DNA from: Escherichia virus TH41
Sequence record: MT446412.1
Length of the DNA stretch: 64,000 bases
Strand: one strand, 5' to 3'
Shown piece by piece: positions 5,237 through 17,780 of the stretch. Below the pieces are notes generated by a model. That model saw only the letters and a list, made by a program, of their open reading frames with translations. It was not told the origin of the DNA and ran no database searches. Numbering within the stretch: the stretch's first letter is position 1; the number at the start of each line of letters is the position of its first letter. A program made the translations under genes and the position numbers.

Positions 5237-5312
5237 GGCCCTGTAGCTCAATTGGTTAGAGCATCCGGCTCATAACTGGCAGGTTTCCGGTTCAAGTCCG
5301 GATGGGGCCACC
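5237..5312 (+). tRNA. tRNA with CAU anticodon (Met or lysidine-modified Ile)
   Basis: Cloverleaf by hand: acceptor GGCCCTG/TGGGGCC, D-arm GCTC..GAGC, anticodon loop CTCATAA, T-arm TCCGG-TTCAAGT-CCGGA; one mismatch in anticodon stem. Confidence 0.7.
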
Positions 5313-5389
5313 CGGGGTGTAGCTCAATTGTATAGAGCAACGGTCTTCTAAACCGTAGGTTGTGGGTTAGAATCCCACCACCCCGACCA
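5313..5389 (+). tRNA. tRNA-Arg (anticodon UCU)
   Basis: Acceptor CGGGGTG/CACCCCG, anticodon stem ACGGT/ACCGT, loop CTTCTAA, T-arm GTGGG-TTAGAAT-CCCAC, encoded CCA. Confidence 0.8.
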
Positions 5390-8384: not shown

Positions 8385-8401
8385 ATTAGTGCTTTAATGG
8401 G

Positions 8402-8426
8402 AACATGATAGTATGTTCCCTGGATA
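8402..8426 (+). promoter_or_regulatory. candidate MotA-dependent middle promoter
   Basis: TGCTTTA box, about 12-nt spacer, TAGTAT -10 inside inverted repeat GGGAACAT/ATGTTCCC. Confidence 0.4.
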
Positions 8427-8456: not shown

Positions 8457-9050
8457 ATGAATACTTTAAAGAAACTTGTTGAATTCATCCGCTCCAAACT
8501 GGGTACTGCAATGGCACAAAACCTGTCTATTGAAGACCAGTATACTAAAGCTGCTTCTACCCTGATTGATAAGATTACTGAGCTCCAGACTGCCCATGTT
8601 AAGTCTGTTAATGAAGAAAAACGCATTCGCGAGTTAGCGAATGAAAAAGACCAGCTCGCTTCTTCTAAAGAACGCGAAATTCGTAAACTGATTGCTGATG
8701 GCGCAGATGTCCAGGTCCATGCTAAACTGGGTCTCCTTTATCGTCGCACTGCTAAACAACTTCGTAAGAAGGCAGATGATTATGTTGAAATGCGTAATGA
8801 AATTAAATTGAAAGTTAAAGAGCTGGATGATTCTCGTCAGGAACTAGCTGTTAAACTGGAATATATCCGCGAAACCCGTAAGGTGTCTGCGCTGGGTATT
8901 GCAACCGCAGATGATGTTGTTGAAATCGCTGCATTGACTAAGATTGATATTGAAGACACTCTGATGCGTGTTGAAACCTTCAAAGGTCCACAGGTTGGTG
9001 TGGATACCACATCCGCTGACATTGAAGAATATATCAATTCACTTAAGTAA
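8457..9050 (+). CDS. coiled-coil hypothetical protein
   Basis: 197 aa, strongly helical heptad-rich sequence. Confidence 0.5.
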
Positions 9051-9094
9051 GATAAAAAGGGGGCTTTGCCCCCTAATTGGGAGAGGAGAATATT

Positions 9095-9649
9095 ATGAGC
9101 TTATATACTGACCTTCTATCAAATGTAGACTGGTTTGGTGGTAGTGGTCTTGCCACTGAAACTAACACAGTTCTTTATAGAATCCGCGGTGACCTAGGTT
9201 ATTCCAATGATTTCTTAAGAAGAACAACAAGTCGCGGCGATACTACAAAATTGCCTTTTATTTTTGCTTTAGCTGAAGACCTTTCTTTTGCAGATGCCTT
9301 GGAAATTATTGATGTAAATCTGGGTATTCAACGAGTGGAATTCGGCGGGCTGAGTTATTCCGTGTATGCATTAAACGACCCAAGCGATTATAAACAACTT
9401 ATTGATGCGGATGATTATGACCATTTGGTATGTTATTTGATGTTGGAAAATGGTGACCACTTTGGAATGGTTGACCGCCGCCCAACTTATACTGATATTA
9501 AAAATTATGATAAAGATGAGCTTCTTGATTTGGCGGCTGAGTACACATTAGAGAGTCGTAAACGGAAACGTAAGCTTAATCGTTTTATTGCTGAATGTCG
9601 TGAATATGCTAAAGGGGTTCAAAATGCGAACGTTATATCTGCCAAGTAA
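9095..9649 (+). CDS. hypothetical protein with basic RKRKRK segment and FIAEC motif
   Basis: ATG 9095 after GGAGG RBS; 3' end overlaps next gene. Confidence 0.5.
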   Translation: MSLYTDLLSNVDWFGGSGLATETNTVLYRIRGDLGYSNDFLRRTTSRGDTTKLPFIFALAEDLSFADALEIIDVNLGIQRVEFGGLSYSVYALNDPSDYKQLIDADDYDHLVCYLMLENGDHFGMVDRRPTYTDIKNYDKDELLDLAAEYTLESRKRKRKLNRFIAECREYAKGVQNANVISAK

Positions 9650-9983
9650 ACCAGAAAAATTTGTATACGCAGACAAGATTGATAAAGACCTTATGCCTCC
9701 ATTTGGAGCTTTGTCCATGTGCATCGTTGGGGTTATAATGATGGTGCTTTGTGGGGATATGAATATCATTAGTGTTGGAGTCGCCTGGTCACTAATAATT
9801 GCAGCACCTTTTATTACAGTCCTGAGCATGATATTGATAAATGTGTGGCATCAAAATCATATGAATAAAGGATATCGTGGGCGAGTTAAAGAGTGGGAAC
9901 AAAAATGCGTTTCCCTGCAAGAAGAGCACAAAATTAAATGTGCCGAAGAATTTATTAAGGAGGTTCGTAATGGAACGGCCTAG
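9624..9983 (+). CDS. small two-TM membrane protein (FIKE tail family)
   Basis: Two hydrophobic helices then basic segment and ...EEFIKEVRNGTA. Confidence 0.5.
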   Translation: MRTLYLPSKPEKFVYADKIDKDLMPPFGALSMCIVGVIMMVLCGDMNIISVGVAWSLIIAAPFITVLSMILINVWHQNHMNKGYRGRVKEWEQKCVSLQEEHKIKCAEEFIKEVRNGTA

Positions 9984-10323
9984 TCTTGCATCACATGTTT
10001 ATCAATTGGCTGAATATGATATTGGTGCCAATTTATTATTAGGGATTGTCACCGCCATGCTTGGTGGTTTGGTTGGTCTGGTAATGACCACGGTTATGGC
10101 TGCAATCGAGGGAGTCATGCCCATTGAGATGGGTTTCTTTATGATAATCGCTCCGGCTGTTGTGTCTTATTTTATCCCTGTTGTGTATGATATCTGTCAC
10201 ACAAATGCAGTGAATGCTCCTAGTCGGAAGAGATATGGTTCAGCAATGGCTGAGTATAATAAGTTCCTGAACAAAACAAAACGTAATGAACTTGAAACCT
10301 TTATTAAGGAATGTAAATCATGA
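9970..10323 (+). CDS. small two-TM membrane protein (FIKEC tail family)
   Basis: Two TM helices, C-terminus ...LETFIKECKS. Confidence 0.5.
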   Translation: MERPSLASHVYQLAEYDIGANLLLGIVTAMLGGLVGLVMTTVMAAIEGVMPIEMGFFMIIAPAVVSYFIPVVYDICHTNAVNAPSRKRYGSAMAEYNKFLNKTKRNELETFIKECKS

Positions 10324-10610
10324 ATAAAATTGAAATTGCTATCCCCAAGTATTATGATGAGAAATCTGCAGAAAAAGCTATCTATTCTCTTCTAAATAAG
10401 ACCTCTGAAATTGAAAAACACTGTGAAGAAATCGCAGATGAATATGGTATCGAATTCAGCACTGGTGATTACGGCACCGGCCGTACATATCACCCAGTCG
10501 GTTATGAATGTTCCGAATGGTTCGCTCACCATATTGAAAACAACGGCGGACAAGTTGAAAACGGCATTGTTACTGTTGGTGCCTGGGTTTCCTCTTCTGA
10601 GGTGTGCTAA
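10320..10610 (+). CDS. small protein, member 1 of C-terminal W-x-S-S-x-x-C tandem family
   Basis: Ends ...GAWVSSSEVC; ATGA overlap with upstream gene. Confidence 0.55.
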   Translation: MNKIEIAIPKYYDEKSAEKAIYSLLNKTSEIEKHCEEIADEYGIEFSTGDYGTGRTYHPVGYECSEWFAHHIENNGGQVENGIVTVGAWVSSSEVC

Positions 10611-10611
10611 T

Positions 10612-10893
10612 ATGATGAATGATTACCGTAAAAATAAAGAACTGGCTAACGCAGTAAATGACATCCATAAAGCTATTCGTCGTGCTGAGGAAATTGCAAA
10701 CAAATATGAGACTCATTTTAATATATACCCTGCTCGCGGTATGGGCGGTGACTATTATTCTCCTGGCGCCCTGAAAGCTGACCTTGCTCATTGGGAAGAA
10801 CATGGTCATCCTGAATGGGCTATTGTTAATACTCATGACTATACAACTGACCTGGAAAAAGGCGGTTGGGTGTCCTCCTCTTCTGAATGTTAA
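10612..10893 (+). CDS. small protein, member 2 of W-x-S-S-x-x-C tandem family
   Basis: Ends ...GGWVSSSSEC; ATG 1 nt after previous stop. Confidence 0.55.
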   Translation: MMNDYRKNKELANAVNDIHKAIRRAEEIANKYETHFNIYPARGMGGDYYSPGALKADLAHWEEHGHPEWAIVNTHDYTTDLEKGGWVSSSSEC

Positions 10894-10902
10894 GGAACTA
10901 TT

Positions 10903-11100
10903 ATGTCTCGTGAACTAGATTGTGCAATCCGTACTGCCGCGGCAGCTATTGAAAACGTTATCCAGATTTGTAAAGAAGAGCGTGAAGAAGCTGATATCTA
11001 TATCGATGGTGTTCGTGACCTAGAACGACATATCACGCTTTATAATGGTTGTATTACTATTAGTGGTACCTCTTGGGTGTCCTCCTCTTACGAATGCTAA
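10903..11100 (+). CDS. small protein, member 3 of W-x-S-S-x-x-C tandem family
   Basis: Ends ...TSWVSSSYEC; RBS TAAGGAA formed by previous stop. Confidence 0.55.
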   Translation: MSRELDCAIRTAAAAIENVIQICKEEREEADIYIDGVRDLERHITLYNGCITISGTSWVSSSYEC

Positions 11101-11109
11101 GGAAATAAA

Positions 11110-11328
11110 ATGACTGCTAAAACTGTTAAAGAAATTGAAGACCAAATCCGTGCACTAATCTGTGAAGGTGAACAACTGGCCGATAAAACCGGCGAACACT
11201 TCCGTAGCGGTGGCGAAGAATATATTCCAGCTTCTAGTCCGGAATATAACGATTATGAATGGGTTCGTGACGAATATTGTATTCCAGAAGGTGAAGGTTT
11301 CTGGTTTAACTCCTCTATGTCTTGCTAA
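11110..11328 (+). CDS. small protein, member 4 of W-x-S-S-x-x-C tandem family
   Basis: Ends ...GFWFNSSMSC; RBS TAAGGAA. Confidence 0.55.
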   Translation: MTAKTVKEIEDQIRALICEGEQLADKTGEHFRSGGEEYIPASSPEYNDYEWVRDEYCIPEGEGFWFNSSMSC

Positions 11329-11337
11329 GGTGATAAA

Positions 11338-11571
11338 ATGACTACTGCTGTTGAACATGCTGAATTAGAAAAAGCTGCCCTTGAACTGGCTGCACTGTAT
11401 AAGAAAGTAAAAGATATGGCTTTTGCTCAAGATTTCGGTGTTGAGCTTGATGATTATGACGGCGAAGTCCGTCTTGAAGACTGGTTGAACAGTTCTTGTT
11501 ATGGTGAAGAAGCTGGTCGTACCTTCGTTGCTCGTGCCGATGGTAAAATCTGGTACCCAAGTTCATGTTAA
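11338..11571 (+). CDS. small protein, member 5 of W-x-S-S-x-x-C tandem family
   Basis: Contains DWLNSSC and ends ...KIWYPSSC. Confidence 0.55.
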   Translation: MTTAVEHAELEKAALELAALYKKVKDMAFAQDFGVELDDYDGEVRLEDWLNSSCYGEEAGRTFVARADGKIWYPSSC

Positions 11572-11792
11572 AATTGAAAAAACGATACATTCGTAAAATA
11601 AATGGTCTTCGCGATTATGCCAAAGGTTGGCCATTAAATCTTATTATGGCTGATAGACATCCACGTTACAATACCGAGTTGACTTATTACAAAAAGTATG
11701 ATTCGTATTGTCGGTCTAAAGCGGGTCGTTTAGATGGTTCCTATGAAGAATATTTCGGTAAAAAACCTACTCGCATTTCGTTAGGAAAATAA
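11565..11792 (+). CDS. small basic hypothetical protein
   Basis: 75 aa, Lys/Arg/Tyr-rich; start overlaps previous stop. Confidence 0.45.
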   Translation: MLKLKKRYIRKINGLRDYAKGWPLNLIMADRHPRYNTELTYYKKYDSYCRSKAGRLDGSYEEYFGKKPTRISLGK

Positions 11793-11823
11793 TTTAATCA
11801 CAAGGATGTGATAGGAGGACTTT

Positions 11824-12153
11824 GTGCATAAAGATTCAGTATTCAAATATCTTTTGAAAACAGATAAAGAATTCTATATGAATGGGCAAGCTTTCTTGTT
11901 CGTTCGCGGTAAACGTGAGATGTTTTACAAATGCGACCTCTCAATGCATCATCATATGTATCATACCCACGGTGAGTTTATACTGGGGTTCTCTGGTGAC
12001 GAAACCAGACATATAGCTATGTACTACGACCATTTTAAGCTCAATGATTGCGGTGACAACGCTCTGGTCTGGAATCCATCTTGGCGTCGTTGGGATAAGG
12101 TAGACAACGATAAATTATTTTTAGAATATTGTAGAAGCAGTATACAAGTCTAA
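11824..12153 (+). CDS. His-rich hypothetical protein (GTG start)
   Basis: GTG start 7 nt after GGAGGA RBS; motif MHHHMYHTHGE. Confidence 0.45.
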   Translation: MHKDSVFKYLLKTDKEFYMNGQAFLFVRGKREMFYKCDLSMHHHMYHTHGEFILGFSGDETRHIAMYYDHFKLNDCGDNALVWNPSWRRWDKVDNDKLFLEYCRSSIQV

Positions 12154-12217
12154 AAAACTGTGTTACTATACTCCTATCAACTGATGACAATCACGTTATC
12201 AGAACAGGAGAATAAAA

Positions 12218-12418
12218 ATGTCTATCGCAAACGAATTAATCAAAGTTCTGAACGAAGCCAAAGTCAACCAACTGGAGGTTAATCTCCAGGAAGTTTCTGA
12301 TGGCATTAAAGTAACCATCAGTGGTGATTACGCAGGCGTCACAGAACGTGTTTGTGATTCTCTGGAAGAAGTAGTTTCCTGCATTAAAAGAGATATTTAC
12401 GCATACGGTATTATTTGA
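12218..12418 (+). CDS. hypothetical protein
   Basis: 66 aa, GGAG RBS. Confidence 0.45.
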   Translation: MSIANELIKVLNEAKVNQLEVNLQEVSDGIKVTISGDYAGVTERVCDSLEEVVSCIKRDIYAYGII

Positions 12419-12428
12419 GGAAAATATT

Positions 12429-12596
12429 ATGTATAATGTTCTTATTGTTTTTGTCACTCACCCGCAAGGTGGAGTAAGACAGAATACTTCTCAAGTGGTT
12501 CAATTTTCTTCACTAGAGGCCGCCAATCTTGCTGCCTCACGAATTGAAGCGAAAAAATCTGAACTAGGTAAATATGAAGTAACTCGTCTTTATTAA
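12429..12596 (+). CDS. small hypothetical protein
   Basis: 55-aa ORF (below the track cutoff) filling the gap before 12612; GAGGAAAA RBS. Confidence 0.35.
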   Translation: MYNVLIVFVTHPQGGVRQNTSQVVQFSSLEAANLAASRIEAKKSELGKYEVTRLY

Positions 12597-12611
12597 TCTG
12601 AGGAAAATATT

Positions 12612-13571
12612 ATGATGTTAGTTATTGGTTCTCGTGCATTGCATAACGCTGGTCTGATTGAAAGTCAGAAAATTGAAAATTCTGATTGGGACTTTATCGC
12701 TGACCAAGGTTCTTGGAACCACTTTAAAGCACGTATGTTCGGTGCTCATGTTCCTGTGGATAACCCTAACGTCCAAGCTTTTAAATGTATGTACAATGGC
12801 AAAGAAACCTATTTTGAAGCTTATATTGTCCGTGCCCTGACCAACGTACGAGAAATTACTGGTGAGCTTCAAGACGAAGATTTCACCTCAAGTTATCGTC
12901 TCCTGAAATATGCTGAAAATCATATTAAAAAAGATCGTCTTACAGGTTTTTACTGGGCAACTCCTGATATTTGTCTGGCAATTAAATTATCTCATCGTTA
13001 CCTGAAGAACAATCCATTCTTCCTGAAGACCATGAGTCATATTAATTACCTTCGCAATAAGGGTGTTGTTCTTAATGATGAACTGCAGAAAATCATGTTG
13101 CAGCGTCAGGCAGAAACACTGTCATACAGCCACCCTAAACTAGACGTGGGCAAGAAAACTTTCTTTAATGATACAATCTATACCCTTGACCATGACTCCA
13201 TCCACGAGGCTGTGGCGCTTGCTGATAAGCCTGCATATAAGTTCTATATGAAGGATGATTCAGAAGTCATGACCTCACGTGAAAAATTTGAAGCACTCCC
13301 TGATGTTATTAAACTGGCAGGGGTTTATGAAGAAGCATGTGTGCTTGCTCTGGAGCGTTCGCAGGTTCCAAATGAGTTCAATATCTCTCCATCCGTGAGC
13401 TTCCATATTGCGCTGGAAAAAGTCTGCACCTCCATTACTTCTGGATGGTTCCGTGAGTATGCCTGGGAACATTACCAGGAAGTGGTTAATATGTATAACA
13501 CTCTGGGGCGCGAAGACTATGTTAAACGCTTCAAGGCTAACCAACATTTAATTCGTCCTTTCACAAAATAA
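12612..13571 (+). CDS. hypothetical protein, possible nucleotidyltransferase-fold enzyme
   Basis: 319 aa; N-terminal VIGS(R)...17 aa...SDWDF resembles Pol-beta NTase hG[GS]...DxD, but the spacer is long. Confidence 0.5.
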   Translation: MMLVIGSRALHNAGLIESQKIENSDWDFIADQGSWNHFKARMFGAHVPVDNPNVQAFKCMYNGKETYFEAYIVRALTNVREITGELQDEDFTSSYRLLKYAENHIKKDRLTGFYWATPDICLAIKLSHRYLKNNPFFLKTMSHINYLRNKGVVLNDELQKIMLQRQAETLSYSHPKLDVGKKTFFNDTIYTLDHDSIHEAVALADKPAYKFYMKDDSEVMTSREKFEALPDVIKLAGVYEEACVLALERSQVPNEFNISPSVSFHIALEKVCTSITSGWFREYAWEHYQEVVNMYNTLGREDYVKRFKANQHLIRPFTK

Positions 13572-13630
13572 GTGTGTACATCCAAGTGGGACCATGACAC
13601 AATGGTCCCACAATCAATGAGGAAAATATT

Positions 13631-14317
13631 ATGAACAGTCCAAAAACTTTTAATTCTCAAGCTCGTGCAGTAGGCGGTTTCGCTGGTAAAATTTCTAATG
13701 ATAAAATCAAAAACGAAACTATGTTCTTCAACAGCTCATTGGCTTTCGCTTTTGACAATGGCGGTCCTATTACTCGCAGCTTTATCATGAACCTGCCGGA
13801 TGATTGGAACACTGACCAGGTTGTATTTGATTCTCGGGTTCATATGTTGATGCCTGGTTGGTATCCTGCTATCCCTGGGTATCACCATGATGATGTGCCA
13901 CGCCCGGATATTCCGGTTGGTCAACACTTTATTACTGCAGGGCAACCTGATTATGATAATCCTCGTTACCATTCTGAACATATTCTTGGTCTTGTTAACG
14001 CCGATGTGTGTCCTACTTATTTTGCAACCGGAACTGCGCAATTTAGTCAGATTCCTGAAGGCGAACTTATCTATCGCCAGTGGCATAAAGAAGTTCTGGA
14101 AAAAATTGAGTCCAATGAATTAACCAAGTGGGATGCTCCTGACCGCACGTTGCTCCAGTTTGATTGGCAGACATGGCATACAGGTTCTCGCGCAGTAAGT
14201 AATGGTTGGCGCTGGTTTGGTCGTGTGTCTCGTAATACCGACCGTGTTAAAAAGATTACAAATGAAATCCGCGTTAATGCTCAAGTATATCTGGAATTCC
14301 CTATGGAGGGCTGGTAA
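13631..14317 (+). CDS. hypothetical protein, possible 2OG-Fe(II)-oxygenase-like
   Basis: 228 aa with YHHDD and distal WHTGSR...R; weak motif evidence only. Confidence 0.45.
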   Translation: MNSPKTFNSQARAVGGFAGKISNDKIKNETMFFNSSLAFAFDNGGPITRSFIMNLPDDWNTDQVVFDSRVHMLMPGWYPAIPGYHHDDVPRPDIPVGQHFITAGQPDYDNPRYHSEHILGLVNADVCPTYFATGTAQFSQIPEGELIYRQWHKEVLEKIESNELTKWDAPDRTLLQFDWQTWHTGSRAVSNGWRWFGRVSRNTDRVKKITNEIRVNAQVYLEFPMEGW

Positions 14318-14904
14318 TGGCCCTTTATGAACCCGGTTGTATGGGTGTTGATGTAAACTTCATCCGCCGGGCAGAAAATGCAGGTATAATTGTATCAAGA
14401 GATGAATTTATGATTACCAAAAAATATTGGGCGAACCTTGATGATGGTGATGAAGGAATCAAGGTGGAAAATGTTGATTGGTCGCGATGCAATCGTCATG
14501 TGAAAGAGCTTTTAATTAAGGAATATAAAATGGGATACATCATTAACGGACATCAACCAGAACCACTCAAAGAACAGACACCCGACCCATTAATTTCTTA
14601 TAGCAAGAAATATGGATTTCGTACCTGGAGTGATGAATTTGATAAGTTAATTTGTTCCAGGTTTTATGCCTGGTCTGGAATCTTATTTTTACCATTCCTG
14701 TGGTTTTTCCTGACAGGTAAAAATGAAGCACCTGTAGCTGTAATGGGCGCGTGCTTTTCTACTGCTCTTGCTGGACTTATTGCATCATTTTTATGGACTA
14801 TGGTTATTGAAGTACCTTTTCGTATTTCTAAAGTTAAAAAGGTATATGACGATATCACTAAGAAAAATACATTGAACTCTTTTATTGAGGAATGCCGTAA
14901 ATGA
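14317..14904 (+). CDS. membrane protein with soluble N-domain (FIEEC tail family)
   Basis: C-terminal two hydrophobic helices and ...LNSFIEECRK. Confidence 0.5.
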   Translation: MALYEPGCMGVDVNFIRRAENAGIIVSRDEFMITKKYWANLDDGDEGIKVENVDWSRCNRHVKELLIKEYKMGYIINGHQPEPLKEQTPDPLISYSKKYGFRTWSDEFDKLICSRFYAWSGILFLPFLWFFLTGKNEAPVAVMGACFSTALAGLIASFLWTMVIEVPFRISKVKKVYDDITKKNTLNSFIEECRK

Positions 14905-15137
14905 GTATTGCAATTTATATTAAATCCGAGTCATGTGATTCTTATCTGTATTCCTATGACACTGGAACATCAGAAGAGAAAATAAAAGAAGATTTAGAAA
15001 CTGACTTGGATATGTTCCGACCAATTTCCGATTACATGATTCAAGTTTCTGATAGTGAAAGCCCTTCATTGGAAAATAGACTTGAATTTTTAATGAGCGA
15101 TATTTTTAACCAATCATGGAAACGAGACGATGAGTAG
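14901..15137 (+). CDS. small acidic hypothetical protein
   Basis: 78 aa, Asp/Glu/Ser-rich. Confidence 0.45.
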   Translation: MSIAIYIKSESCDSYLYSYDTGTSEEKIKEDLETDLDMFRPISDYMIQVSDSESPSLENRLEFLMSDIFNQSWKRDDE

Positions 15138-15588
15138 GAAAAACAAGGTGAAAGAATTATCTGCTGGCATTATTTTCATGACTGAAGATAAAGAGTTATT
15201 CATGGGTCGTGTGACCGGTTCTCGTAAACCAGGTATGCCTGCACACAAATGGGACATCCCTAAGGGTCATGTTGAAGCTGGTGAATCCCCGATTGAAGCG
15301 GCTATTCGTGAAACCGAAGAAGAAACTGGGTTTACCCAATACGACCCGGCATTCTTAAAAGACCTCGGTGAGTTCCGTTATTCAGATAATAAAAACCTTC
15401 ACCTGTTTTTGTATACGGTTCCTGTCGAGCATGAACAATTCAGGCACAGTAAATGCTCTGCCTATCATACCTTCCCGGATGGCAGTTCGGTCCCAGAGTT
15501 CGATGCATTTGCTCTGATTAAACCGAGTCAATGGCAGTACGTGATGGGTAAATCGATGTACAAGGTAATGACTCAAATTTTCGGATAA
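15130..15588 (+). CDS. nudE: Nudix hydrolase NudE
   Basis: Nudix box GHVEAGESPIEAAIRETEEETG; upstream of e as in T4. Confidence 0.85.
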   Translation: MSRKNKVKELSAGIIFMTEDKELFMGRVTGSRKPGMPAHKWDIPKGHVEAGESPIEAAIRETEEETGFTQYDPAFLKDLGEFRYSDNKNLHLFLYTVPVEHEQFRHSKCSAYHTFPDGSSVPEFDAFALIKPSQWQYVMGKSMYKVMTQIFG

Positions 15589-15614
15589 TAAATACCCCTA
15601 TATAAGGGGGTATT

Positions 15615-16103
15615 ATGAATATATTCGAAATGTTACGCATAGATGAAGGTTGTAAGTTGGATTTGTATAAAGATACAGAAGGCTTTTGGACCATCGGTAT
15701 CGGGCAACTGATAACTAAGAACCCATCGAAAGATGTAGCTCGCGCTGAGCTCGACAAGCTTATGGGTCGTGTTTGTAATGGTCGCATAACCCAGCACGAA
15801 GCTGAAACATTGTTTAATCGTTCGGTCGAAAAAGCTAAAGCCGGAATCTTGAGACACCCTGTCTTAAAACCTGTTTATGATGTACTGGATGAAGTTCGTC
15901 GTTGTGCGCTCATTAATATGGTATTCCAGATGGGTGTTGCTGGTGTTGCTGGTTTTCCTAAGGGTATGCGATTGTTGAAGGCTAAATCATGGGAAGCCGC
16001 CGCTAAGGAACTGGCCGACTCGAGATGGTATAAAGTCCAGACTCCGAACCGGGCTAAACGAGTTATCGAAACTTTCCGCACCGGAACTTTTGACGCATAT
16101 TAG
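15615..16103 (+). CDS. e: endolysin (T4 lysozyme e)
   Basis: [12 protein letters not shown]...[11 protein letters not shown] matches T4 lysozyme including catalytic Glu11/Asp20/Thr26 region. Confidence 0.95.
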
Positions 16104-16132
16104 TGTACATCTCCAAATGGTAGGGTTATAAT
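16104..16132 (+). promoter_or_regulatory. early promoter
   Basis: GTGTAC-17 nt-TATAAT, -10 flanked by inverted repeat TAGGG/CCCTA. Confidence 0.5.
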
Positions 16133-16158
16133 GGCCCTATCAACTACGGAGAACAAAC

Positions 16159-16575
16159 ATGACTCGCATTAATTTAACTCTGGTATCTGAACTTGCTGAC
16201 CAACATCTTATGGCTGAATATCGTGAGCTTCCTCGCGTGTTTGGTGCAGTTCGCAAACATATACAAAATGGTAAAAAGGTTTCTGACTTTAAAATTCCAT
16301 CATCTTTTCTTTTAGGAACTGGTCATGTCACCTTCTTTTATGATAAACTTTTGTTCCTTAAAAACCGTCATCAAGAACTTATTGCGGAATGTTTAAAGCG
16401 AGGGTTTAACATAAAAGATATTTCTACCCAAGATTTAAATGATATTCCTGATGAATGGAAGAATGATTATCAACCATCAATCTGGTCAATTGAAATCAGT
16501 CAAGCCAGACTGAATGAGAAAATTTCTCAAAAGCCTACCTGGTACAAATACTATGGGAAAGCTGTGTACGCTTAA
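16159..16575 (+). CDS. denV: endonuclease V (pyrimidine dimer DNA glycosylase, denV)
   Basis: [29 protein letters not shown]... near-identical to T4 denV. Confidence 0.95.
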
Positions 16576-16623
16576 CTAAAAAGGTTGTATAATGATTTTA
16601 TCAACCAAACAATGGAATATAAA

Positions 16624-16938
16624 ATGAAAACTTATCAAGAATTTATTACTGAATCTACCCAAAAACGTGTTGAAGGCGGTTATGTCTGGATTGAACAGTT
16701 AACCCCACCAAGTGAAACAAGCACAGGTTCATGGAAAATTACTGTTGATGGTCCTGGCGGCAAACGCAAGACTATTAAAGAAATTAAAGGCTATTATGAT
16801 GAAGCTAAATCATGGGCGGGTAGTCATGTAATGCAGATTAAAATTGCAAATCCGGATAACGTTCATGCAGCAAAAGCATTCCGTCGTATTGGTAATAAAC
16901 TTTATGATGCGTTTTTGCGCGATTTCCCTAAAGCTTAA
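16624..16938 (+). CDS. capsid-targeted internal protein (IPII/IPIII-locus member)
   Basis: MKTYQEFITE at RBS-consistent ATG 16624 (upstream in-frame ATGs lie in the promoter). Confidence 0.6.
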   Translation: MKTYQEFITESTQKRVEGGYVWIEQLTPPSETSTGSWKITVDGPGGKRKTIKEIKGYYDEAKSWAGSHVMQIKIANPDNVHAAKAFRRIGNKLYDAFLRDFPKA

Positions 16939-16951
16939 TTAAAGAGACATT

Positions 16952-17215
16952 ATGAAAACGTATCAAGAATTTATTACTGAATCTGCCAAAGCTCCTGCTG
17001 GTTCCTTTAAAGTCCGCGCCTTCGCTGGCGATGCTGAAGACTTTGGCACCATGAAGCGCAATGGTTATTCTTTCTTTGGTGGCGATGGTAAAGAAATTGT
17101 CACATATGCAAAACGTCGCGAAATCGCATTCGTGGTTGCTGGTAAGAAAGTTGATGCTGACGATATTGAATGGGACTTTGAGACCTTTGGTATTGTTTCT
17201 GGCGGTAAAGCATAA
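16952..17215 (+). CDS. capsid-targeted internal protein
   Basis: MKTYQEFITE; paralog of 2791..3090. Confidence 0.6.
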   Translation: MKTYQEFITESAKAPAGSFKVRAFAGDAEDFGTMKRNGYSFFGGDGKEIVTYAKRREIAFVVAGKKVDADDIEWDFETFGIVSGGKA

Positions 17216-17217
17216 CT

Positions 17218-17246
17218 GTTTACTTTATGATGGGATAGTGTATAAT
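17218..17246 (+). promoter_or_regulatory. early promoter with -10 inside stem-loop
   Basis: GTTTAC-17 nt-TATAAT; inverted repeat ATGGGATA/TATCCCAT brackets the -10; followed by GAGGAG RBS. Confidence 0.6.
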
Positions 17247-17274
17247 TATCCCATCAACTACTGAGGAGAATAAA

Positions 17275-17472
17275 ATGTTAACTTATAAAGAATTTATGAA
17301 AGAAGTTAAAAAACTTAAAAAGACTTCTGGCGATGTTAAAATTGAAATCCATGGTCAAAACGTAAATGTGGTAGCGGATGGCCAGGCATTAGTTCTTTAT
17401 AGTGATAAAGACCAAGAATTTCGTGAAGCACAAAAGAAAAAATTTACCGTATGGCTTAAAAAAGCTGTTTAA
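17275..17472 (+). CDS. small basic protein with CTS-like N-terminus
   Basis: MLTYKEFMKE...; 65 aa. Confidence 0.5.
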   Translation: MLTYKEFMKEVKKLKKTSGDVKIEIHGQNVNVVADGQALVLYSDKDQEFREAQKKKFTVWLKKAV

Positions 17473-17480
17473 GGACCAAT

Positions 17481-17780
17481 ATGAAAACGTATCAAGAATT
17501 TATCACAGAAGCCAAAGCTCCTAAAGCATTTCAAATCGGAGTCCAGGGCAATTTAGACCAACAATATGTTGATGCTATTGTCGCAAGCCTCGGTAAACAA
17601 GGTGTACAAGTGGATTTGGTTGATTTTACTAAAGGTAATACTTTTAATATTGTCGCATCTAAAGGTTCTTTAGCTAAAGTTAAAAAGGCCTTTGGCGTAG
17701 CACAAGCATATGAAATTGACCATTCTGAATTAGAAAATAAAGGTCGCCAGAACACAATTAAAGGCTCTGGTTCTTTTTAA
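17481..17780 (+). CDS. capsid-targeted internal protein
   Basis: MKTYQEFITEAKAP... Confidence 0.6.
   Translation: MKTYQEFITEAKAPKAFQIGVQGNLDQQYVDAIVASLGKQGVQVDLVDFTKGNTFNIVASKGSLAKVKKAFGVAQAYEIDHSELENKGRQNTIKGSGSF

Follow-up and report, generated by a model that had tools for sequence, protein, structure and literature searches.

Gene content of the locus

The window, the whole stretch of 64,000 nt of Escherichia virus TH41 (sequence record MT446412.1) analysed here, comes from a Gaprivervirus-type, T4-like phage. Three consecutive open reading frames, all on the plus strand, were found in the ORF list with the positions and lengths that an earlier note on this DNA had given: ORF1 (12612-13571; 319 aa), ORF2 (13631-14317; 228 aa) and ORF3 (14317-14904; 195 aa). 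ORF1 and ORF2 are each preceded by GAGGAAAATATTATG, and the start of ORF3 overlaps the stop of ORF2 by one base (TAATG). The spacer between ORF1 and ORF2 harbours, on the plus strand, a hairpin with a perfect 10-bp stem and a 6-nt loop (13586..13611), the RNA fold of which is at -19.6 kcal/mol (z = -2.2); we found no T-run 3' of it. In the phages SP18 and VR7, the same spacer is occupied by inserted ORFs or homing endonucleases. The genes downstream of ORF3 (14901..16575, plus strand) are translationally chained; these are a 78-aa ORF (14901-15137), nudE/e.1 (15130-15588), the lysozyme gene e (15615-16103) and denV (16159-16575).

ORF3 (14317..14904, plus strand) encodes a homologue of the T4 membrane protein e.2 (phrog_2203; E = 4e-65), and its homologues in SP18 and RB69 are labelled e.2. 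The two proteins are alike over a W..LDDGD.GI.V..VDW..C block (34% identity) and their genes occupy the same place upstream of nudE, although ORF3, at 195 aa, is roughly double the length of T4 e.2 (102 aa). With e.3 and e.4, the T4 membrane-protein paralogues of e.2, it has in common a hydrophobic segment and a FIxEC(R/K) tail. The product of ORF3 had been described as membrane-anchored, and one strongly hydrophobic stretch of 31 residues (residues 138-168) bears this out; the hydropathy profiles of ORF1 and ORF2 include no such stretch. The label "holin" that the e.2 homologue carries in the GenBank entry of EAWsc9 finds no support here.

The identity of ORF3 changes the comparison with T4. 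The earlier note had placed the three genes at a site that in T4 holds nothing but small e.x ORFs; that there is an insertion relative to T4 stands, but ORF3 is not part of it. Since ORF3 is the e.2 homologue, and e.3 and e.2 adjoin each other in T4, the inserted segment that separates the two is larger than first described: judged by the RB69 gene order and the window, it extends from about 10320 to 14317, that is, from a series of genes for small proteins through ORF2.

Tandem paralogues with a common C-terminal tail

The 5' part of the insertion consists of five tandem paralogous genes on the plus strand, for small, acidic proteins that end in the consensus G-x-W-φ-S-S-S-x-x-C-stop, and which we identified with a motif scan and PHROG searches. 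The first (s1, 10320..10610; 96 aa, pI 4.6; phrog_899, E = 1e-21) ends in GAWVSSSEVC-stop and has no match in Pfam. The second (s2, 10612..10893; about 93 aa if translation starts at the ATGATG that follows the stop of s1; phrog_899, E = 9e-20) ends in GGWVSSSSEC-stop, the third (s3, 10903..11100; 65 aa; phrog_4882) in TSWVSSSYEC-stop and the fourth (s4, 11110..11328; 72 aa; phrog_899) in GFWFNSSMSC-stop. The fifth (s5, 11338..11571; 77 aa) ends in KIWYPSSC-stop and includes a second, internal copy of the motif, EDWLNSSCYG. These five genes account for all motif copies in the 64-kb window, and every one of them lies upstream of ORF1. A word-indexed protein search with the small proteins returned 33 hypothetical proteins and no fusions.

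The Ser pair and the terminal Cys are separated by 0 to 3 residues. Given this variable spacing and the absence of RiPP enzymes nearby, we regard an interpretation of the S-x-x-C tail as AviCys- or RiPP-like as no more than a remote idea.

Between the tail-tagged set and ORF1 lie four small, unrelated ORFs, also on the plus strand (11565-11792, 11824-12153, 12218-12418 and 12429-12596; PHROGs 7065, 9796, 14244 and 20278, respectively), which separate s5 from ORF1 by about 1 kb. Their presence is patchy across the loci of related phages. The small ORFs upstream of ORF1 are unrelated to the antitoxins MenA and AbiEi.

ORF1 has the fold of a Pol-beta nucleotidyltransferase

ORF1 (12612..13571, plus strand) encodes a nucleotidyltransferase (NTase) that belongs to the Pol-beta superfamily and has a unique helical domain at its C-terminus. 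It matches the Pfam models DUF7277 and DUF7275 with 92.8 and 254.3 bits, respectively, both over the gathering cut-off of 27, as do all 30 relatives that we examined (30/30 for both models), and it belongs to phrog_2141. The NTase core (aa 2-101; 12615..12914) was delimited by invariant columns and by a strand-helix-strand arrangement in the structural model, while the DUF7275 domain (aa 120-305; 12969..13526) follows from the Pfam match and invariant columns. The family is large: it is present in over 700 sequenced phages and in some 2,000 protein clusters.

A GS...SDWDF pattern in ORF1 had been noticed before as a weak hint of such an enzyme, and it is not a chance match. The superfamily motif, hG[GS] followed by [DE]h[DE]h, is represented in ORF1 by IGS (G and S at residues 6-7) and SDWDF (residues 24-28), and the candidate catalytic residues G6-S7 (12627-12632), D25 and D27 (12684-12692) and E69 (12816-12818) are invariant amongst 30 family members with identities down to 43%. 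G6, S7, D25 and D27 are retained even in homologues from Streptomyces and Gordonia phages at 29-31% identity. The candidate third carboxylate, E69, lies on a predicted strand and is invariant in the 30-member alignment; the minimal actinophage homologues miss that segment. The AF2 model (pLDDT 91) has an alpha/beta NTase fold, and the G-S...D-x-D site, with E69 as its candidate third carboxylate, is intact; the protein falls inside the fold suspected in the earlier note.

The solved structures closest to ORF1 are the tRNA NTase toxins MenT1 (8an4), MenT3/TglT (6j7n) and MenT4 (6y56), with which it has no sequence-model match, and the core is nearest to the minimal NTases of the MenT/AbiEii, ANT(2'') and Lnu group. 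Superposition on any solved NTase covers about 145 of the 319 residues. The helical C-terminal domain, roughly half of the protein, is extremely conserved and, unlike that of MenT/AbiEii, has no solved counterpart. Its DUF7275 invariants are K125-x-S127-H128, K139, H194-D-S-I-H198, E240-E241, E248-R249 and T273-S274, and the signature blocks of the family are GVYEExCVLALERS and KVCTSITSGWFRE. In the DUF1814/AbiEii/MenT proteins, C-terminal motifs III (Lys) and IV (Asp) have been defined (PMC7450476); in ORF1, motif III might be represented by K125 or K139, both invariant, and the residue after K139-T-M-x varies.

Neither ORF1 nor its 30 relatives matched the AbiEii model of Pfam or the AbiE models of PADLOC at E values up to 1, and ORF1 has no match to the models or the fold of CD-NTase/cGAS-like signalling enzymes. 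Searches of Pfam, NCBIfam, PADLOC and the PDB with single sequences and profiles yielded no named relative beyond the two DUFs, and a literature search for DUF7275, DUF7277, the PHROG identifiers and the RB69 and JS98 gene names returned nothing relevant.

ORF1 is accompanied by tail-tagged proteins

With the motif scan we found 171 tail-motif ORFs in 66 of 80 ORF1 loci, all on the same strand as ORF1, although these loci do not count as independent events since many of them are from related T4-like phages. Shuffled sequence gave zero matches. There are one to five such ORFs per locus, usually within 1.6 kb upstream of ORF1; the nearest one lies at a median distance of 345 nt, and at 150 nt or less in 17 of the 66 loci. 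BLAST clustering of the neighbouring genes led to the same family, which is the commonest recurrent neighbour of ORF1 (48 loci) and in which 73 of 74 members have the Cys end. The linkage recurs in phAPEC8, phiPsa315 and Ps15.

The occurrence of tail-motif ORFs follows that of ORF1. Amongst loci anchored on ORF2, they are present in all 23 that also have ORF1 and in none of the 57 that lack it, and there are none in 64 kb of T4, which has no ORF1. Counted in phage records by genus, the small protein and ORF1 occur in similar numbers in phages of Aeromonas (57/59), Enterobacter (34/36), Klebsiella (31/35) and Shigella (17/18). Fourteen of the 80 ORF1 loci are devoid of a motif ORF; the actinophage homologues of ORF1 are likewise found without motif ORFs, near RNA ligase, Pnk or tRNA genes. 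In at least five unrelated groups of phages that infect Gram-negative bacteria, ORF1 has the tail-tagged proteins, and not ORF2, as its conserved genomic companions.

ORF2 is a predicted PhyH-like oxygenase

ORF2 (13631..14317, plus strand; phrog_1843) is predicted at the level of the fold to be a stand-alone, PhyH-like Fe(II)/2-oxoglutarate (2OG) dioxygenase. The HHDD and WHTGSR...R motifs, previously put forward with reserve, are real: in an alignment of 40 diverse relatives with a mean column identity of 32%, only 12 columns are invariant, and these include H85 (13883-13885), D87 (13889-13891), H183 (14177-14179) and R194 (14210-14212), as well as R91, R198 and R214. H86 and D88 vary, and the metal-binding triad would therefore be H85/D87/H183. 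R194 (H+11) and R198 lie on the next predicted strand, and either one is a candidate 2OG-binding residue by analogy with PhyH.

The AF2 model of ORF2 (pLDDT 84.6; residues 86-115 at low confidence) was used for a Foldseek search of the PDB, in which nearly all top matches were of the PhyH class (ColD, H11, GriE, HalB and HygX), with probabilities of 0.99-1.0 and modest scores (E = 8e-4 to 7e-3; TM 0.3-0.45). Together with the invariant HxD...H...R, these matches place ORF2, with moderate strength, inside the double-stranded beta-helix (DSBH) Fe/2OG fold, as the earlier note had supposed. The DSBH fold and the HxD...H triad are common to ORF2 and the PhyH-class enzymes ColD, H11 (a proline hydroxylase), GriE, HalB, HygX and EvdO2, and in ORF2 an Arg follows the distal His at a distance of 11 residues, a spacing that human PhyH presumably shares (H264/R275). 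ORF2 differs from the class in its smaller size (228 aa), a long, low-confidence insert after HxD, a G-W that is invariant at the C-terminus and further invariant Arg residues.

By sequence, ORF2 remains below the threshold of the Pfam PhyH model: it has no Pfam match, and just one of the 40 relatives reached PF05721, at E = 0.068. Neither single sequences nor profiles found any named relative in Pfam, NCBIfam, PADLOC or the PDB. TET/JBP enzymes are absent amongst the top 50 Foldseek hits and from the Pfam results. PhyH-like genes ("phytanoyl-CoA dioxygenase domain") are already known to be common in T4-like cyanophages (PMC3037559). The GenBank labels "nucleotidyltransferase" and "phytanoyl-CoA dioxygenase" for ORF1 and ORF2 in EAWsc9 are defensible at the fold level.

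Distribution of ORF1, ORF2 and ORF3

The earlier note treated the three genes as one accessory module. On such a reading, ORF1, ORF2 and ORF3 would act jointly, e.g., to hypermodify nucleotides or DNA or as parts of a membrane-associated pathway. Their arrangement invites that reading, for the genes are neighbours on the same strand, there is a one-base overlap between ORF2 and ORF3, the chain runs on into nudE, and the order ORF1-ORF2-ORF3 is kept in Gaprivervirus, Dhakavirus and Mosigvirus. Their distribution argues against it. ORF1 and ORF2 are found together in just 23 of 80 loci, irrespective of whether ORF1 or ORF2 is taken as the anchor, and are unlinked in the other 57; where both are present, their spacing differs among loci, and in SP18 and VR7 the two are split by the insertions described above. 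ORF2 exists on its own in unrelated phages, such as an SPP1-portal siphophage and a Klebsiella phage-plasmid, and no recurrent neighbour of ORF2 emerged from the 57 loci without ORF1. T4, for its part, has e.2, the counterpart of ORF3, and lacks both ORF1 and ORF2. The module is thus already largely refuted by distribution, and we regard joint action of the three genes as very improbable.

A specific variant was considered because RB69 carries both ORF1 and ORF2, namely, that they belong to the arabinosyl-5-hydroxycytosine pathway. The published RB69 gene set for cytosine arabinosylation consists of different genes elsewhere in the genome, does not include these two and uses a MurU-type NTase. 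DNA hypermodification by ORF1 or ORF2 is accordingly unsupported. RNA-end modification by ORF1 is a live possibility.

Possible role of ORF1

The explanation that we tentatively prefer treats the block as three independent accessory genes instead of a pathway, with ORF1 acting on, or being controlled through, the tail of the small proteins; we put the probability of this explanation as a whole at roughly 0.4. ORF1 would use an NTP and Mg2+ to move a nucleotidyl group onto a hydroxyl acceptor, and the likeliest acceptor, or else the controlling ligand, would be the Ser-rich tail that is invariant at the C-terminus of the small proteins encoded alongside it. The diversified bodies of these proteins may carry the early-infection function that the modification switches. 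ORF2 would act independently, hydroxylating a substrate that is probably anionic, as the extra invariant R91, R198, R214 and Y220 suggest.

Pol-beta NTases that modify proteins are known: MntA of the HEPN-MNT system AMPylates HepT, GlnE AMPylates glutamine synthetase, and DrrA is another such enzyme. Tyr is the known acceptor in all three. They provide a working analogy for ORF1, inferential only, in which the hydroxyl side chain of a co-encoded or target protein is modified; the invariant candidate acceptors in the ORF1 system are Ser, as opposed to Tyr. Several observations speak against the tail as the acceptor: the enzymes with the nearest solved structures have tRNA 3' ends or antibiotics, and not proteins, as their substrates; 14 of the 80 ORF1 loci and the actinophage homologues are without motif ORFs; the nearest tail ORF is within 150 nt of ORF1 in just 17 of 66 loci; and four unrelated ORFs stand between the two in the window.

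The main rival is one that we consider doubtful: ORF1 could be a MenT-like RNA nucleotidyltransferase that extends or repairs the 3' ends of tRNA or other RNA during infection, for host shut-off or versus tRNA-targeting defences, the small proteins then being antitoxin-like inhibitors or specificity factors and not substrates. MenT1, MenT3 and MenT4 are the best structural matches, and MenT genes lie downstream of small antitoxin genes (MenA1 has 68 aa), echoing the order of small ORFs and ORF1. The T4-like locus is syntenic with a region adjoining a tRNA cluster, and the actinophage homologues stand beside RNA ligase, polynucleotide kinase and tRNA genes. Linkage to tRNA genes, however, does not hold as a rule, since only three of 41 distant loci have any within 6 kb of ORF1. 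The lack of AbiEii and AbiE matches also weighs against a MenT-like enzyme, as does the superposition, which leaves out more than half of ORF1. One to five divergent, acidic paralogues with only a W-x-S-S-S-x-x-C tail in common are unlike any known antitoxin, MenA and AbiEi included. Furthermore, MenT/AbiEii belong to host defence or toxin-antitoxin loci whereas ORF1 is phage-encoded, and a constitutive toxin in a lytic phage needs separate justification. The other structural neighbours would make ORF1 a small-molecule nucleotidyltransferase of the ANT(2'')/Lnu type that activates or inactivates a metabolite, e.g., an anti-phage antibiotic or a host signal. That group is near to the ORF1 core in fold, but ANT(2'')-Ia and LnuA are about half the size of ORF1, lack DUF7275 and have no sequence relationship with it, ORF1 has no antibiotic context, and the conserved linkage to the tail proteins would be left unexplained; we deem this role quite improbable.

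The proposal of tail modification can be taken further, to a version that is unlikely as it stands: a previously undescribed two-component phage system, in which the DUF7277 + DUF7275 NTase would recognise the tail and nucleotidylylate one of its Ser residues, and so arm, switch or regulate early proteins that are small, acidic and diversifying, and that may be effectors of anti-defence or host takeover. Such a system would be conserved in Straboviridae, Stephanstirmvirinae, Otagovirus, Menderavirus and jumbo phages.

Implications

A family catalogued so far only as two DUFs is now placed near the MenT/ANT nucleotidyltransferases and has a conserved partner family. With ORF2, the long-standing puzzle of PhyH-like 2OG oxygenases is no longer confined to cyanophages but takes in coliphages, siphophages and phage-plasmids, and its stand-alone occurrence indicates that the gene works independently of the others. 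Should ORF1 act on tRNA, the enzyme would be the phage equivalent of a bacterial toxin; should it act on the tail, it would represent a new kind of phage-encoded protein nucleotidylylation, directed at a family of paralogues.

Gene Order and Existing Annotation

The phage behind the window is T4-like and of the Gaprivervirus type. The earlier note, made from the sequence alone, had described positions 12612-14904 as an accessory module composed of a protein with a nucleotidyltransferase (NTase) motif, a possible oxygenase and a membrane protein. The ORF list returns the three genes exactly as described, all on the plus strand, i.e., ORF1 (12612-13571; 319 aa), ORF2 (13631-14317; 228 aa) and ORF3 (14317-14904; 195 aa). 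The observation is thus confirmed and both fold interpretations are supported; the module is not. Over 2.8 kb around ORF1-ORF3, identity is 94-95% with Yersinia phage vB_YenM_P8 and Escherichia phages TH57, P479 and VR20, and ~90% with Shigella phage SP18. ORF3 is followed by a 78-aa ORF, nudE (e.1), the lysozyme gene e and denV. Genes for tRNA-Met(cat) and tRNA-Arg(tct) occur at 5237-5389; their position, ~7 kb ahead of ORF1, agrees with the tRNA-e synteny of T4.

In Escherichia phage EAWsc9 (PQ341120.1; L001), ORF1-3 are labelled “nucleotidyltransferase”, “phytanoyl-CoA dioxygenase” and “holin” in GenBank. We have used these labels as leads only, because 70-100-aa neighbours in that record are named “malate synthase”, “transposase” and “ovule protein”; implausible names, including “type IV secretion VirB3”, occur on 60-120-aa ORFs of the region. 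The naming, including “holin” for what is an e.2 homolog, is likely automated over-annotation, and nothing in our analysis supports a holin label for ORF3.

The same translation-initiation region, GAGGAAAATATTATG, stands in front of the ORF at 12429, ORF1 and ORF2, which follow one another directly (exact matches at 12417, 12600 and 13619), and recurs with one mismatch at 9083, 25496, 28242 and 62156; these seven matches at ≤1 mismatch compare with 0.03 expected. It contains a GGAG-like RegB-type sequence. The only MotA-box-like middle-promoter match between 5 and 26 kb, TGCTTTAA-N-TAGTAT at 8390-8414, precedes the ORF at 8457. The ORF1-ORF2 spacer harbours a perfect 10-bp hairpin (13586-13611; -19.6 kcal/mol, z -2.2) that no T-tract follows. 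In SP18, the equivalent spacer is occupied by an additional ORF of 75 aa, and in VR7 by a putative endonuclease. Further downstream (16585-17780), several successive ORFs start with MKTYQEFITE or MLTYKEFMKE, resembling the leader that targets internal proteins of T4 to the capsid; their SP18 equivalents are named Ip10 and internal head proteins.

ORF1 Has an NTase Fold

In Pfam, ORF1 matches DUF7277 over aa 2-101 (E 2e-26) and DUF7275 over aa 120-305 (E 1e-75); it also matches phrog_2141 and has no match in NCBIfam, PADLOC or PDB sequences, even when the family profile is searched. The family comprises 2,061 clusters at E ≤ 1e-3 and is present in 731 phage records. Among 30 members, with identity down to 43%, G6, S7, D25, D27 and E69 are invariant, together with a long C-terminal set that includes the blocks GVYEExCVLALERS and KVCTSITSGWFRE. 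Homologs of Streptomyces and Gordonia phages, at 29-31% identity, keep the G-S and D-x-D motifs, K125-x-S-H128, K139, H194-D-S-I-H198, E240-E241 and E248-R249. The AlphaFold2 model built from the alignment has a pLDDT of 91.4. The invariant motif residues, their conservation in homologs and the model together therefore make an NTase fold with an intact catalytic motif well supported; the earlier note had proposed the fold, as a weak call, from the GS...SDWDF pattern, whose G-S and D-x-D residues are kept at both levels of divergence. About half of the protein, its most conserved half, is without a solved counterpart.

At the sequence level, neither ORF1 nor 30 relatives match the DUF1814/AbiEii models of Pfam and PADLOC, and a CD-NTase-type signalling enzyme is not supported. 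The minimal homologs (248-263 aa), found in Streptomyces phage BillNye (L093) and Gordonia phage Aphelion (L094), retain the GS..DxD motif and the DUF7275 core, but the NTase sheet is largely missing from them. Their neighbours are RNA ligase and polynucleotide kinase (Pnk) genes, or a tRNA cluster.

ORF2 Resembles Fe/2OG Oxygenases

The only family matched by ORF2 is phrog_1843, no match being found in Pfam, NCBIfam or PADLOC. A profile search of a 50%-clustered library gave 735 clusters. Conservation is unusually high: among 1,144 relatives, the best 120 all show ≥ 68% identity. When 40 diverse members are aligned (mean column identity 32%), the columns without variation are H85, D87, R91, P106, H183, R194, F196, R198, R214, Y220, G227 and W228. 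They amount to an HxD...H triad, with an Arg located 11 residues past the distal His, and a C-terminal G-W. Of the “HHDD” motif originally singled out, H85 and D87 are invariant in this set, and H86 and D88 are not.

The AlphaFold2 model (pLDDT 84.6; weak at residues 86-115 and the last six) matches almost exclusively PhyH-class Fe/2OG oxygenases in a Foldseek search of the PDB (ColD, proline hydroxylase H11, GriE, HalB, HygX, EvdO2, ThoJ, MysH, SptF and FtmOx1), with probabilities of 0.99-1.0 but E-values of only 8e-4 to 7e-3 and TM-scores of 0.3-0.45. These matches and the invariant HxD...H...R support the proposed 2OG-Fe(II) oxygenase fold, and ORF2 likely has the Fe/2OG fold with a metal/2OG site. 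We have not filed it as a PhyH family member. By sequence, nothing bridges it to PhyH (among the 40 members, a single one is at E 0.068; the PDB profile search was empty). T4-like cyanophages commonly encode PhyH-like domains, with the substrate unspecified (PMC3037559). The invariant Arg/Tyr cluster suggests that the ORF2 ligand may be anionic. Four proteins of the family (P0256, P0286, P0340 and P0377; 387-455 aa) have two or three matched stretches each; in these, the oxygenase domain has apparently been duplicated in tandem or fused.

ORF3 and the Bounds of the Insertion

ORF3 is a homolog of T4 e.2 (phrog_2203 at E 4e-65; 34% identity to T4 e.2), and the annotations of SP18 and RB69 name its equivalent accordingly. 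It has a single strongly hydrophobic stretch (aa 138-168). Its identity as an e.2 homolog speaks against a module. ORF3 and the e.3/e.4-like ORFs at 9077-9649, 9588-9983 and 9877-10323 have in common an FIxEC(R/K)-like tail. Hydrophobic segments are present in three of the four. The alignment of these ORFs with T4 e.2, e.3 and e.4 suggests a single family of membrane-protein paralogs.

From either anchor, ORF1 and ORF2 co-occur in 23 of 80 loci: an ORF2 homolog lies within 6 kb of ORF1 in 23 of the 80 ORF1-anchored viral loci, all from enterobacterial or Aeromonas T4-likes with spacings of ~10 bp to ~2 kb, and ORF1 is found in 23 of the 80 ORF2-anchored loci. The other 57 are from other phage types and have no recurrent neighbour in common. 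Solitary ORF2 homologs occur in the contig of a phage with an SPP1 portal and in a Klebsiella phage-plasmid carrying Rep3, gp32 and RecA. A three-gene module is therefore not supported, and ORF1-ORF3 are neighbours by shared synteny rather than a functional unit. The arabinosyl-5-hydroxycytosine pathway of RB69 was rejected as a role for ORF1/ORF2: its genes differ and are located elsewhere in the genome.

In T4, e.3 directly adjoins e.2, whereas RB69 has the order e.3, ORF139c-135c (small proteins), ORF134c (ORF1 homolog), 133c, ORF132c (ORF2), e.2, 130c and nudE. From these gene orders, the accessory insertion extends over about 10320-14317; the block is indeed an insertion relative to T4, with bounds other than the 12612-14904 first assigned to it.

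Small Proteins with a Conserved Tail Accompany ORF1

Clustering of flanking ORFs identified a small-protein family, upstream on the same strand, as the most recurrent ORF1 neighbour (48 loci, 27 of them distant). A terminal Cys is present in 73 of the 74 members defined by BLAST, and the tail logo reads G(-9) x W(-7) φ S S(71/73) S(67/73) x x C-stop. A motif scan found 171 such ORFs in 66 of 80 ORF1 loci (1-5 copies each), many of which are related, so that the counts do not represent independent events. The tail-motif ORFs lie without exception on the same strand as ORF1 and nearly always upstream of it; shuffled sequence yielded none. Among ORF2-anchored loci, tail-motif ORFs occur in 23/23 with ORF1 and in 0/57 without it. 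Likewise, T4 lacks ORF1, and the 64 kb of its genome that were scanned (1-50 kb and 62-76 kb) contain neither tail-motif ORFs nor homologs of any of the three families. Phage-record counts by genus (small protein/ORF1) run closely in parallel, at 57/59 for Aeromonas, 34/36 for Enterobacter, 31/35 for Klebsiella and 17/18 for Shigella.

Four other groups, unrelated to one another, show this linkage as well. Besides jumbo-phage contigs (355-371 kb), they are represented by Escherichia phage phAPEC8 (Stephanstirmvirinae), where tail-tagged gp188, gp190 and gp191 precede the ORF1 homolog gp192; by Pseudomonas phage phiPsa315 (Otagovirus), which has five upstream copies; and by Stenotrophomonas phage Ps15 (Menderavirus), whose two or three copies directly follow the ORF1 homolog. 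No tail motif was found in 14 of the 80 ORF1 loci, nor near the actinophage homologs.

The only five tail-motif ORFs of the window form a tandem plus-strand set at 10320-11571, outside the block described in the earlier note. In these paralogs, W-x-(S/N/P)-S-x(0-3)-C directly adjoins the stop codon. Proteins of the tail family have an acidic pI (4.3-5.6) and belong to phrog_899 or phrog_4882 without a Pfam match; besides the tail, an N-terminal helix and a YGxGxxYxP segment are common to them. Paralogs of the type at 11338-11571 (in phAPEC8, L090:4413-4631) bear a second, internal motif, EDW[LQ][NS]SSCYG, ~30 residues ahead of the terminal copy. Four unrelated small ORFs separate the set from ORF1; across loci, the median gap is 345 nt, and only 17 of 66 loci have a gap of ≤ 150 nt.

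The 78-aa ORF at 14901-15137 (phrog_2900), which lies between e.2 and nudE, is weakly similar (32-34% identity) to ORFs in jumbo-phage contigs, ~1-1.7 kb upstream of ORF1 homologs (L054, L063, L066, L067, L072), and may be a second recurrent ORF1 neighbour.

Possible Roles of ORF1 and Its Partners

ORF1 would transfer an NMP to a hydroxyl acceptor. Because the tail is invariant while the partner proteins diverge, and the non-catalytic domain of ORF1 is extremely conserved, the Ser-rich tail would be the most parsimonious candidate for the acceptor or for a regulatory ligand. Such a modification would parallel the protein-AMPylating systems MntA-HepT or GlnE; as a specific mechanism, we consider it rather unlikely. 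Its main rival, itself doubtful, is a tRNA/RNA 3′-end activity like that of the MenT tRNA nucleotidyltransferase toxins, with the small proteins as modulators. The structural neighbours of ORF1 favour this rival, as do the RNA ligase, Pnk and tRNA contexts of the actinophage homologs. A small-molecule substrate appears quite improbable. For the description as a whole, i.e., three independent genes, the folds correct and ORF1 partnered with the tail family, we estimate a probability of about 0.4; its fold-level parts are very probably right.

Both enzyme families are catalogued but uncharacterized phage families, so that the finding as written in the earlier note is modest. The association of ORF1 with the tail proteins is, as far as the literature searched shows, new, and it is directly testable.
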